A DNA stretch of 64,000 nucleotides from positions 1 to 64,000 of the forward strand of contig JARVGK010000003.1 in NCBI GenBank assembly GCA_029762535.1. Direction: 5' to 3'. Each line of letters begins with the position of its first letter. Within the stretch, counting starts at the first letter, position 1. Below are positions 31,708 to 49,920 of this stretch, piece by piece. Below the pieces are notes generated by a model. The model searched no databases and was not told the origin of the DNA. It saw nothing but the letters and a program-made list of their open reading frames with translations. The position numbers were made by a program, and so were the translations under genes. Origin of the DNA: Thermoplasmatota archaeon (lineage in GTDB: Archaea; Thermoplasmatota; Penumbrarchaeia; Penumbrarchaeales; Penumbrarchaeaceae).

Positions 31708-31766
31708 GGATGGAGTATGATGGGAGTATTTTAAAACCTTGTCCCCGGGAATATTTTGGAATAAGG

Positions 31767-32050
31767 CGGACCCATGGGGATTCGATGCTTAGAAAATCCC
31801 TACGGATTTTCTGCATCTTGGGATCTCGAATTAAAGGAATGATGCTTTTGATCCCAAGAACCAAGGTTCGAATCCAAATGTACATTGTTCTTGAAAATAA
31901 TTAGAAAGCGGACCCATGGGGATTCGACTGTGAAAAATCCTTCGGATTTTCCACGTCTGGGATTCTTTAATCGATATGATATTGTTGTTGAATCCCAGAA
32001 CCCAAGGGTTCGAATCCAAATGTACAATGCTCCCGAAAATAATTAGAAAG
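31767..32050 (-). repeat. two 142-bp tandem units, each carrying the tRNA-Arg 3' end with a twin-hairpin insert
   Basis: cggacccatggggattcga at 31767, 31909 and 32051 (exact 142-bp period); shared ggttcgaatccaaatgtaca and gaaaataattagaaag. Confidence 0.9.
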
Positions 32051-32124
32051 CGGACCCATGGGGATTCGAACCCCACCCCCCGGCTCCGAAGGCCGGAAGA
32101 CTATCCTGGCTATCCTATGGGCCC
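32051..32124 (-). tRNA. tRNA-Arg (anticodon TCG), no intron, CCA not encoded
   Basis: GGGCCCA/TGGGTCC acceptor stem, CCGGC-CTTCGGA-GCCGG anticodon arm, TGGGG-TTCGAAT-CCCCA T arm. Confidence 0.93.
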
Positions 32125-32676
32125 GATGATTGGGTTATGGCCCTGTAGGGTCATAACCCTATTTTAATCGATTCATAAGCGGATCCCCAGGATATGTGTT
32201 ACTCCCGAAGGGATCGGGGGTGGGGAAAAAAGTCTCTGTGGTTGGATTCTTTCGGGGGAAGAATCCACCGGAAGACTATCCTGGCTATCCTATGGGCCCA
32301 TATTGGTTTGTAGTCCGAATGTAATGAGGACTATAAACCTTTATATGGTGATCCTTAGGCTGGATAGGCGGATCAAGCCATATTCGGGGTGGGGGAAAAG
32401 CCTCTGTACGGAGGCCGGATCGGGGATCCGGCCTGAAGACTATCCTGGCTATCCTATGGGTCCATGAACTATTGGATGGCCAAAGGCCGGCCAATAGTTC
32501 TATTTTTCGGACCCATAGACGATGGGGGATAGGCGGATCTAGCCGAGTTCGGGGTGGGGGAAAGAGTCTGTGTACGGAGGCCGGATCGGGGATCCGGCCT
32601 GAAGACTATCCTGGCTATCCTATGGGCCCGATGATTGGGTTATGGCCCGTAGGGATATAACCCAATTTCAATCAAT
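32125..32676 (-). repeat. three ~165-175-bp units, each carrying the tRNA-Arg 5' 29 nt plus hairpins
   Basis: gaagactatcctggctatcctatggg(c/t)cc at 32271, 32435 and 32601 (and at 32096 in the tRNA); shared ggggtggggg-aaa block. Confidence 0.9.
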
Positions 32677-33003
32677 TCATCTACCGCTTATACGGTACCA
32701 TGCGGGAAGCCCGATGTACCTGTAATGGTCCTCGATCTGCCTGGAATATATGGAGGCATAGAAGCGGTTGAAATCGGCGACATGAAGCAGTCCCTTCTTC
32801 GTGGGAACGACCTTGTAGGACCTCTCGTCCCTATCGACCGATATGTAGCCCTCACCCTCCAGATGCGAGAGCACCCTCTCCGTCATGTTGTGGTTTGACC
32901 TTATATGATGCATTATCTCCGATTTGGAAAGCCCGTCGATCCCTCCAGAAAGAAGCTGTTCGATCTTCGATCCGAGATCTTTCTGCTGGAGATCGATGCC
33001 CAT
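32677..33003 (-). CDS. winged-helix DNA-binding protein
   Basis: LSKSEIMHHIRSNHNMTERVLSHLEGEGYI..YKVVPTKKG. Start taken at ATG 33003. Confidence 0.75.
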   Translation of the reverse strand: MGIDLQQKDLGSKIEQLLSGGIDGLSKSEIMHHIRSNHNMTERVLSHLEGEGYISVDRDERSYKVVPTKKGLLHVADFNRFYASIYSRQIEDHYRYIGLPAWYRISGR

Positions 33004-33086
33004 CGCTGAGGCTAGAAGGTTCAACACGATGCAGGAATACAGGTTGATGTCCTTGTAGCTCTTTCCTTCCAAACCGCACACACCTC

Positions 33087-33932
33087 TCAGGGCAGCACTT
33101 TCGGGAGCTCTGGGACATACGGTATGAACTCGTATCTCCCGTTCGGAAGTTCCACGACGACCTGAACGTTCATCCGCTTCTCCTTCTTTGCCTTAAGGTA
33201 TATCCTACCCTCGACAAGTTTGTCATACAATTTCTCGTCGATCCCGTTGAACGACCCTCCCGCCTTGTAAAGCAGACATACCCTGCCCGGGTATATCTTC
33301 GATCTCGATGTGATATCCTCCAGGTCACTTATGATGGCCTTGAGGTCCTCTGAACTGGGGGATCTCCTGTACTCTCGTATGAAGATGGAGTATCCCGGAT
33401 ACCCGATCCTGAACAGCTTGGAGAAGAACGATGCCTTGTTGAGGATGAAAGCGCTGAAATGATGCCTCTTTCCCGACTTGCCCACGGCATACGAGTCCTT
33501 CCTGATGATCTCCGGCCTTCTGCTGATCATCCTCTTGAAGGTGAGATTGTTCTTCTTCAGATAGTTGAGGAACCGCTCCGTCATGTTCTTGCCTTTCGGT
33601 ATGGAATGTCCAGGGGGCCCCTCCCTCATGGCCTTGATGGCCGAATACCTGAAAGCGGCCGTCTTGAGAAAACGCCTCAAATGGGTGAGAAGCCGTGCGG
33701 TTATGATCCCGGTCACGAGAAGGGAGAGAAGTATCAGCACGAGGAACCAGTTGCCACTGGATAGCGTTGCAAGGAACAGCAGCAGGTAAAGTACAACTGA
33801 GAACCATACGAAATATAGCGCGAACTTTGATAGGAACAGTATCCTATCCGAGTTGTCGATTATCTCCTCGGCCAGGTTGAACGTCCCTGATATGGGGTCC
33901 TCGACCCCTCTGTATAGCTGCCATCGCTTCAT
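33087..33932 (-). CDS. two-TM membrane protein with a cytoplasmic domain, possibly restriction-endonuclease-like fold
   Basis: Two N-terminal helices; VGKSGKRHHFS resembles the archaeal GxSGxxHxFD motif. Confidence 0.6.
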   Translation of the reverse strand: MKRWQLYRGVEDPISGTFNLAEEIIDNSDRILFLSKFALYFVWFSVVLYLLLFLATLSSGNWFLVLILLSLLVTGIITARLLTHLRRFLKTAAFRYSAIKAMREGPPGHSIPKGKNMTERFLNYLKKNNLTFKRMISRRPEIIRKDSYAVGKSGKRHHFSAFILNKASFFSKLFRIGYPGYSIFIREYRRSPSSEDLKAIISDLEDITSRSKIYPGRVCLLYKAGGSFNGIDEKLYDKLVEGRIYLKAKKEKRMNVQVVVELPNGRYEFIPYVPELPKVLP

Positions 33933-48657: not shown

Positions 48658-49389
48658 TTTTTTACCTCCAATGGCTTGGTGAAAGATGAGAAAGTATTCT
48701 TACATATTATAAACATAACTTGACATATTAGGTTTTTCATGTCCAGATACGGGACGAATGAAGGGATCCCTTCTTCTGGATAGGTCGATGTTCATATCGA
48801 GTACGGAATAGGGGATCGTTGACGGATGTTCTTGGACTGTTAATAGCAGGGGTGAGAGAAAGGATCCCGAACGGGGATCCCGCGATCATGGTCCTTGACA
48901 AGCTCTCAAGGTCCAATTTCAGGATGTCGATCCCCTTTTATCTCCGCACCAAGGAGGAGATCTTAAAAGTAAAGGATGATTAGACAATACTGTCACTGGT
49001 GGGAACCTTCGTAACGTCAACATGCCGACAACTACAACAGTTCCAAAGGGGGGAAAATGCCATCGGGAATTTTTTCGAAGTTGAACCCTGGGTTCAAAGA
49101 CGCCAGTGGCGACAATGAGTAAAAAAATAAACGGGAAGCAACAAATCGCTCGATCATCAGGCTTCCCGGTCCTGGAAAAACCAAGCCGGGGAATTGGTCA
49201 CTGGTAGTTTTTCCCGACTTTTTCATCCTACAACGATCACAATATGCCAAAGGATGAAAAAGAGCCACTGGTGGGAACCCGCAGAAACCTCGAAGAGGGT
49301 TCGAGGGCAGGGGAAATGTCATCAGACATTTTCCCGATGTTGAACCCAAGGTTCAATCACACCAGTGGCGACAAAGAGTAAAGAATAAA

Positions 49390-49464
49390 TGGAGCCACTG
49401 GTGGGAATTGAACCCACGACCTACTCCTTACCAAGGAGTCGCTATACCGCTAAGCCACAGTGGC
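49390..49464 (-). tRNA. tRNA-Thr (anticodon GGT), CCA encoded
   Basis: GCCACTG/CAGTGGC acceptor, ACTCC-TTGGTAA-GGAGT, GTGGG-TTCAATT-CCCAC, TCCA end. Confidence 0.95.
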
Positions 49465-49520: not shown

Positions 49521-49720
49521 GAGCCACTGGTGGGAACCTTTGGAACGTCAACATGCCGACAACTACAACAGTTCCAAAGGCGGGGAAAATGCCCTCAGGC
49601 ATTTTTCCAACGTTGAACCCACGACCTACTCCTTACCAAGGCCCTGGGAAAACCTTGGGTTTTCCCGGTCATGACCCCTTTCGGGCTCATGAAGTCGCTA
49701 TATCGCTAAGCCACAGTGGC
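49521..49720 (-). pseudogene. full-length tRNA-Thr copy interrupted by two hairpin inserts
   Basis: tRNA segments 49521-49536, 49613-49641 and 49693-49720, separated by 76-nt and 51-nt inserts; D-loop GG>GA; CCA lost. Confidence 0.85.
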
Positions 49721-49920
49721 GATGTTTTGGAGGGTGGTTAAAAACGGACCTATACTAAAACAATATTGAATAAGAGAAGTCACTGGTGGGAACCTTTGGA
49801 ACTTCAACATGCCGACAACTACAACAGTTCCAAAGGCGGGGAAAAAGCCTGTTGCTCTTTCTAAGATTTATCATCATCAATAGTGACAATATAATTATCG
49901 TATCAGATCATCCCGCCTTC

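Follow-up and report, generated by a model that had tools for sequence, protein, structure and literature searches.

Short two-stem modules inserted at tRNA genes of a Thermoplasmatota family: candidate miniature mobile elements with a predicted dumbbell fold

Introduction

What interrupts the copies of tRNA ends that surround two unrelated tRNA genes in a Thermoplasmatota genome, and does it act as DNA or as RNA? tRNA-linked repeats and palindromic inserts that preserve a protein reading frame have been seen for decades without a mechanism. The window, the whole 64,000-nucleotide stretch analyzed here, is contig C36 of a 2.96-Mb genome that is 93% complete and belongs to an uncultured archaeon from sediment. 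An initial annotation of the window described twin-hairpin inserts in the T-loops of tRNA-Arg and tRNA-Thr copies, and proposed either a miniature non-autonomous element that targets the T-arm dyad at the DNA level or a structured RNA module under selection. We followed the module through the genome and its relatives. The modules belong to a family of small non-autonomous palindromic elements, and the best reading is that of miniature mobile elements acting at the DNA level, to which, with the full single-strand-exchange model set out below, we assign a probability of about one half. New in this work are the flush geometry of the ends, the empty alleles and a strand test.

Results and discussion

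The Arg and Thr arrays

[quoted passage not shown] Each unit keeps only 3-4 nt of T stem before the insert, followed by a 2-3-nt loop and an inverted copy of the T arm that had first gone unnoticed (Table 1). Both Arg inserts and the 76-nt T-loop insert at Thr combine a GAAAA/TTTTC hairpin with a 10-bp stem that pairs perfectly and encloses a 24-nt loop; their orientation relative to the tRNA is opposite between the two loci, as had been noted. The units are carried, with a few differences, on contigs from two other studies, so an assembly artefact is unlikely. One strain is without one 175-bp upstream unit.

At the Thr locus, removal of both modules from the interrupted tRNA copy leaves a sequence that differs from the gene at only one of 73 positions (72/73 identical). 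The T-loop insertion is at 58/59, as proposed. In the relative G006 the anticodon-stem site 29/30 is occupied by a different module. The Arg junction is ambiguous over 54/55-56/57 owing to a shared GA; 55/56 had been given as a possible position, and we place it at 54/55 because of the flush pairing described below and the unambiguous relatives. The position 55/56 itself is used, unambiguously, by a Val(TAC) unit and by a tRNA(CAT) unit.

Table 1. Positions of the features discussed in the text. Positions refer to the window unless a contig is named.
Feature	Position	Strand	Description
tRNA-Arg(TCG)	32050-32124	-	intact gene, array host
Arg unit 1 module	31928-31999	-	72 nt; stem 2 at 31956-31999, GAAAA hairpin at 31932-31951; stem-2-first strand is tRNA sense
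Arg unit 1 3′-end copy	31908-31927	-	direct copy of tRNA-Arg 3′ end from T55; closes unit 1
Arg unit 1 inverted copy	32000-32018	+	T-stem remnant, 2-3-nt loop, inverted T-arm copy; completes the unit 1 four-way junction
Arg unit 1 spacer	32019-32049	-	AT-rich, about 30 nt; conserved between Arg units, unlike the loops
Arg unit 2 module	31786-31859	-	74 nt; stem 2 at 31816-31859, GAAAA hairpin at 31792-31811
Arg unit 2 3′-end copy	31766-31785	-	direct copy of tRNA-Arg 3′ end; closes unit 2
Arg unit 2 inverted copy	31860-31876	+	T-stem remnant and inverted T-arm copy
Upstream Arg array	32125-32660	-	three fragments of the tRNA-Arg 5′ end (nt 1-29/32), each preceding a second-class module (TC-CCC-GA apex stem); spacing 175, 164, 166
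tRNA-Thr(GGT)	49390-49464	-	intact gene
Interrupted tRNA-Thr copy	49521-49720	-	complete copy with two module interruptions
T-loop module	49537-49612	+	at 58/59, 76 nt; stem-2-first strand is tRNA antisense
Anticodon-stem module	49642-49692	-	at 29/30, short (51 nt); orientation opposite to the T-loop module
Truncated upstream Thr unit, module	49793-49867	+	module of a further unit
Downstream Thr unit	49262-49372	-	nt 52-72 in inverted orientation, a 3-nt loop, a T arm interrupted at 58/59 by a module of 62 nt (49278-49339), and a 3′-end copy
Three-hairpin unit	49132-49262		long GAAAA hairpin with a stem on either side; also at Thr(TGT) and Thr(CGT)
Distal Thr unit	48992-49097	-	decayed; module at about 49006-49080
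Asp-rich repeat protein gene	contig C25 45494-48121 (L119:495-3122)		875 aa; three in-frame modules, a 108-nt insert and other hairpin-rich inserts
IntI/XerA-like tyrosine recombinase gene	contig C25 100718-101655 (L030:719-1656)		range includes the upstream attC/dif-like hairpin; the 266-aa recombinase is encoded at 100855-101655

A predicted nicked dumbbell with flush ends

Modules of the family are 48-80 nt long. In the orientation that puts the GAAAA hairpin first, a module comprises about 6 nt, a hairpin that varies at its tip and has a conserved GAAAAT/ATTTTC base, a linker of 4 nt and a second stem of 9-14 bp that is free in sequence. The loops are also free in sequence, with a length that is fixed only locally; loop identity falls to ~45% between units that have identical AT-rich spacers. 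The identical stem and loop lengths first reported therefore hold at the Arg and Thr inserts and not family-wide, since stem 2 spans 23-46 nt across the family.

The Arg and Thr inserts fold with z = -3.7 to -8.2, and none of 200 shuffles folded as well. Compensatory changes were found in 13 of 17 pairs, with 90% of cells paired, compared with 73% after shuffling and at most 59% in slid controls. When the two arms were anchored independently, 165 of 190 positions paired, compared with 86 ± 8 after arm swapping; these counts come from 19 distinct arms, are inflated by the relatedness of the modules and do not represent independent events. The stem covariation that had been claimed from three inserts is upheld.

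The ends of the module are paired as well. In 26 of 27 modules the first base is paired with the base that immediately precedes stem 2, through TA, CG, GC and AT pairs, and over two positions 45 of 54 end pairs form, compared with 22.0 ± 2.9 after swapping (0 of 20000 as high). The initial 2-3 bases of the module pair with the linker that leads into stem 2, and a 2-nt bulge, mostly of pyrimidines on the GAAAA-first strand, comes next, at 2-3 bp from the nick. When closed into a circle, the module is predicted to fold into an unbranched rod. In the modeled fold the 5′ and 3′ ends thus abut in one helix, which gives a nicked dumbbell.

Near tRNAs, 3-7 nt of target sequence flank the module on one side and then turn back, by way of a 2-3-nt loop, into an inverted copy of the target. 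Together with this inverted copy, the inserted module is predicted to form a four-way junction, the minimum-energy fold of window positions 31918-32020 on both strands. Over nt 49-72 the inverted copy matches its own tRNA better than any other in only 4 of 17 loci; judged by eye, its host specificity is limited to the T-arm core. At L003, L011, L014, L019, L020 and L024, TCGTCAA is carried on the GAAAA-first strand by many second-stem loops and by those of tRNA-end hairpins, and reverse and forward units often alternate.

Precise insertion inside and outside tRNA copies

Within tRNA copies, modules were found at 21/22 in the D arm (Leu and Ser copies) and at 29/30, 54/55, 55/56 and 58/59, in either orientation. 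Removing the T-loop modules rebuilt the T arm with nothing duplicated in 33 of the 34 cases tested. Seven other modules, including the Leu(CAA) type, leave no clean empty T arm, and the same is true of a subtype that ends at T60 and has no recognizable left flank. Insertion is mostly 3′ of an A. The 5′ flanks (TTCGA, TTCAA, GTCAA, GCCTA, GATAA, ACTGA and CAAGG among them) otherwise share little, and no fixed tetra- or pentanucleotide target emerged. Because the flanks have little in common beyond the final A, the T-arm dyad is a favored site and not a rule. The specific targeting of this dyad that was first proposed does not hold, with modules also in the D arm, in the anticodon stem and, three times, in a protein gene.

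This gene, which encodes an Asp-rich repeat protein, is interrupted in frame by three modules, whose lengths (51, 48 and 69 nt) are each divisible by three. Without them, the protein aligns free of gaps over 62 aa with the homologue in the relative G020, which represents an empty allele. A Thorarchaeota homologue is without exactly the 17 codons of the first module. The 48-nt insertion can be read equally well with a 7-bp duplication. We consider it very likely that the module is mobile and inserts precisely. In the relative G014, a different two-hairpin insert occupies one shared site of the Asp-rich repeat gene.

Two other explanations were considered for the units. In one, replication template switching and gene conversion between tRNA loci would copy modules through T-arm microhomology and perfect stems, without a dedicated enzyme. 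Direct and inverted repeats, the gain and loss of units, units that end in the 3′ end of another tRNA and spacers common to different loci all fit such copying. However, where modules sit in the protein gene, the D arm or the anticodon stem, they have no flank in common with a donor, and slippage is not expected to give a fixed bulge, a 4-nt linker and flush ends, so that we regard this explanation as improbable. In the other, the units would be scars left where an integrase or a casposase had integrated larger elements next to or within tRNA genes. The 3′-end duplications do resemble att sites, relatives have tRNA-adjacent integrases, and a Thermoplasmatota casposase reads the T-loop motif (PMC6614799). 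The units, however, are only 90-190 bp, with no genes and no terminal inverted repeats; the duplications vary from 11 to 21 nt, the module itself is inserted without duplication, and the only Cas1 of the genome is in the CRISPR locus. Duplication-free insertions outside tRNA genes largely refute this explanation, and we give it very little weight.

The folding bias follows the module and not the transcript

Alternatively, the system could work on RNA: transcribed as part of the pre-tRNA, the units would either function as structured RNAs or, in the manner of mobile tRNA introns, be spread by splicing enzymes and reverse transcription. Such a role at the RNA level would agree with the tight link to tRNA genes, with units that end in tRNA 3′ ends and with their retention across the family with compensatory stems. 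The sites 21/22, 29/30 and 58/59 are, we assume, among the non-canonical intron positions of archaeal tRNAs. If selection acted on the transcript, the better-folding strand should follow the tRNA. The stem-2-first strand is the more stable one in 29 of 35 modules in which it is tRNA sense and in 24 of 32 in which it is antisense, a comparison weakened by the shared ancestry of the modules; the mismatches are A.C on the other strand in both groups. Since the stem-2-first strand folds better in both orientations, the bias follows the module and not the tRNA transcript, which weakens the case for selection on pre-tRNA structure. Both orientations even occur within one tRNA copy. The archaeal tRNA intron was also rejected as a candidate identity: the central 4-bp helix of the bulge-helix-bulge is present in only 3 of 27 modules. 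In addition, no reverse transcriptase was found in the genome itself (6 of 23 family genomes have one), and the modules have no Rfam match. The RNA alternative, part of the first proposal, is weakened to the point where we think it unlikely.

A family-wide and tRNA-centered distribution

The module is not limited to the two tRNA loci at which it was noticed. A structural descriptor gave 20 matches in the genome, 19 of which lie within 1 kb of a tRNA gene, zones that make up 2.8% of the genome. The covariance model R2 (E < 1e-4) gave 42 matches, of which 36 (86%) have a tRNA gene within 1.4 kb; among the other six are several array ends that an inserted region or a contig break separates from the gene. 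The concentration at tRNA genes anticipated earlier is thus found, not one at T-loops specifically. Copies of the gene's own 3′ end lie downstream of 22 of the 41 tRNA genes and copies of its 5′ end upstream of nine; 27 genes have some array feature.

R2 matches were found in 22 of 23 genomes of the same family, in all six other genera, with the majority of the inspected matches beside tRNA genes. Database records describe the relatives with this pattern as uncultured Thermoplasmatota. Other families of the class gave only weak matches (E ≥ 4e-4), and in a sample of the phylum all 15 family genomes but only 2 of 134 others had matches, neither of the two at a tRNA. Units at the same tRNA are kept between genera, so movement of the module may be rare now.

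A search of Rfam with gathering and E-value thresholds matched only tRNAs, with no match to the module or to RtT (RF00391), and no description of the family was found in Rfam or in the searchable, mostly open-access literature. The modules are real, family-wide and apparently undescribed, in keeping with the first impression that no such family was known. No modules were found on viruses, phages or plasmids; there was one match in a metagenome. The loops were also considered as spacers or guides and rejected as such: three loops had no exact match in viral contigs, where a search had been suggested, and their best matches in the genome itself were no better than those of shuffles.

A second class of module consists of a 9-11-bp stem with a TC-CCC-GA apex followed by a C-rich tract. 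It is part of the upstream Arg array and also occurs in L001, L005, L007, L012 and L025; 11 of its 13 matches are beside tRNAs, in both orientations. The GAAAAT hairpin also forms clusters and tandem repeats away from tRNA genes (L117:840-1200, L118:1-350, L120:3300-3400, L121:2000-2400 and the end of L122), several of them adjoining defense or mobile-island genes (DUF488, Schlafen/AlbA_2, HEPN-MNT, ORF6N). In the Ala(GGC) array on contig C58 (L046:471-1452), an IS481-like element with TGT...ACA ends and an integrase-type ORF lies inside a unit; the 15-bp direct repeat on its two sides is the tRNA 3′ end in inverted orientation. As a mobilizer of the module this element was rejected; it is a passenger with its own ends.

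The search for an enzyme

No integrase or transposase was found among the 20 ORFs scanned in the window, as first noted. A co-occurring HUH/RAYT nuclease, tyrosine recombinase, IS110 recombinase or reverse transcriptase had been suggested; with modules in nearly all relatives, no known mobilizing enzyme gene tracks them, although such absences are soft, many relatives being incomplete. IS110 is present in 10 of 24 genomes, and the local copy is without a module. Y2 transposases, reverse transcriptases and IS110 are all patchy in the family, with no module at their ends in the cases examined. Cas1 in the genome itself was found only in the CRISPR locus (Cas4-Cas1).

A Y1 or Y2 single-strand transposase of the HUH type, which would bind the imperfect hairpin and cut near a TCAA- or TCGA-like motif, could move the modules as REP/BIME- or PATE-like elements. 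Hairpin clusters away from tRNAs do exist. The lack of target duplication, the strand-discriminating imperfect hairpins, the mosaic arrays and the succession of a hairpin, 4-6 nt and TCRA presumably recall the right ends of IS200/IS605. However, the Y1 transposase domain PF01797 was found in none of 24 family genomes, eight of them at least 90% complete, in a search whose control was positive in 6 of 14, and a Y2 transposase is present in only 2 of 23 relatives and not in the genome itself, with no module at its ends. The TYRA motif of the Thr copy remains with the target and not with the element, and both module ends are paired, while the guide tetranucleotides of HUH enzymes are unpaired. 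We therefore consider mobilization by an HUH enzyme unlikely. Derivation from IS91 or Helitron elements was rejected on the same Y2 distribution.

The IntI/XerA-like recombinase listed in Table 1 is the only complete tyrosine recombinase of the genome, with no further divergent one found there. It has orthologues in 7 of 23 relatives and also occurs in two relatives of the class that have no modules. Its score against IntI is 187 bits with a cut-off of 265, the IntI-specific insertion is absent from the alignment, and no module adjoins it in the genome itself. The hairpin upstream of the gene is conserved in eight family genomes, in some of which small toxin-antitoxin-like genes lie beyond it, and the locus is possibly a minimal archaeal integron. 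The upstream site is a TAA-N6-TTA hairpin, a motif absent from the modules. Judged by this hairpin, recombination at folded sites may exist in the family. A small intergenic repeat has three copies, one just downstream of the recombinase gene (L030:1715-1790) and the others on contigs C31 (20297-20395) and C47 (40944-41021).

Comparison with known systems

REP, BIME and REPIN sequences (RAYT) and the IS200/IS605-derived PATEs are short imperfect palindromes, non-autonomous, arranged in mosaic arrays and inverted doublets and inserted without target duplication, all of which applies to the modules. Unlike them, the modules have no Y1 enzyme in 24 genomes, no GTAG/CGTC foot, paired ends and a strong preference for tRNA genes. 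The Rickettsia palindromic elements (RPE) are likewise palindromic inserts that keep the protein reading frame, by a mechanism that is unknown; compared with these, by description and not by sequence, the modules are at most half the size, form a two-stem dumbbell with a hypervariable loop, lie mainly at tRNA genes and are archaeal. In the E. coli tyrT/RtT arrangement (Rfam RF00391), tandem units behind a tRNA gene each end in its own 3′ end, and such units follow over half of the tRNA genes here. In contrast to RtT, our arrays involve most tRNA genes on both sides, with inverted copies and a separately mobile module.

The precedents for the proposed mechanism are the attC sites of integrons (IntI) and the attP site of CTX phage (XerCD), which share a folded single-strand site recognized by its structure, extrahelical bases, a strand bias, an inferred single exchange and a Holliday-like product (PMC4792948). 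In its predicted structure the module has such a folded strand with extrahelical bases and strand bias. However, it has no AAC/GTT core boxes, gene payload, attI or dif target or linked integrase, and the whole element is the folded site. A true attC site was rejected, as attC has R boxes (RYYYAAC ... GTTRRRY) with crossover at G^TT, whereas the modules end in TC/CC...GA/GG and their T-arm junctions are at 54/55, 55/56 and 58/59, not at G53^T54. Casposons and tRNA-targeting tyrosine integrase elements also duplicate the tRNA 3′ region and keep an intact gene (PMC6614799), but the modules, compared with casposons, have no terminal inverted repeats, no fixed 14-15-bp duplication and no enzyme gene. 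A classical MITE (DDE) was rejected, as the module ends are not mutual inverted repeats and no target duplication is made. By analogy, the module would work like an attC cassette cut down to its site, spread like REP or RPE sequences and be arranged like tRNA-linked repeats, while failing a defining test of each.

A model for module movement

In the single-strand-exchange model, the module would leave and enter DNA as a folded single-stranded circle, the dumbbell. An enzyme supplied in trans, most likely of the phosphotyrosine (tyrosine-recombinase-like) type, would read the conserved GAAAAT/ATTTTC arm, the bulge and the sequence-free second stem and carry out one strand exchange at the nick. 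A single exchange between the dumbbell circle and the target duplex would give a four-way junction with target-module, module-module, module-target and target-target strands, which replication would then resolve. Integrons and CTX phage offer the precedent (PMC4792948): a folded single-strand site with extrahelical bases, one exchange, and resolution by replication. A folded single-stranded DNA intermediate is, in our view, probable in its own right. An insertion in a tRNA gene would survive only if an intact copy remains, which would explain the arrays of end fragments around one intact gene.

More speculatively, a recombinase not yet described, or a host enzyme acting in a new role, might use one strand exchange to insert, scarlessly, any single-stranded DNA dumbbell of 50-80 nt that has the GAAAAT arm, the 2-nt bulge and a free second stem, while the inverted tRNA copy would offer a landing pad through base pairing. 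Such a process might build the tRNA hairpin arrays of several archaeal lineages and could seed tRNA introns; we consider this wider proposal less likely than not.

The rules found here are sharp (flush ends, a fixed bulge, a free stem and loop, empty alleles) and make the mechanism testable with synthetic dumbbells, and a module-bearing family next to a module-free sister family narrows the search for the enzyme. An enzyme that inserts scarlessly and tolerates a free payload would, if real, be of interest for genome engineering. In this archaeon the elements reshape two thirds of the tRNA loci and add peptide segments to a protein.

Observations on the host genome

Upstream of the Arg array, window positions 32677-33932 contain a winged-helix gene, which adjoins tRNA-Arg(TCG) in the relative G010 too, and a gene for a 281-aa protein without a family; the ORF at 33087-33932 was assigned to none. 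The CRISPR locus on contig C5 (61000-64000), with a Cas4-Cas1 fusion, Cas2 and a CRISPR array, is ordinary. Genes for tRNA-Asp, -Lys, -Leu(TAG) and -Pro(TGG) were not found in the assembly of the genome (G000), and perhaps were left unassembled owing to arrays. The tRNA-Arg(TCG) gene contains a G3.U70 pair and shares its 3′ end with tRNA-Arg(CCG), which may be a trace left by exchange between both arrays. The tRNA-Trp gene is followed by a tyrosine recombinase fragment, and its 3′-end array is on a different contig (L048:400-800 and L029, contigs C102 and C53, are involved); an integrated element probably separates the two. One unit of this tRNA-Trp array ends in the 3′ end of another tRNA.
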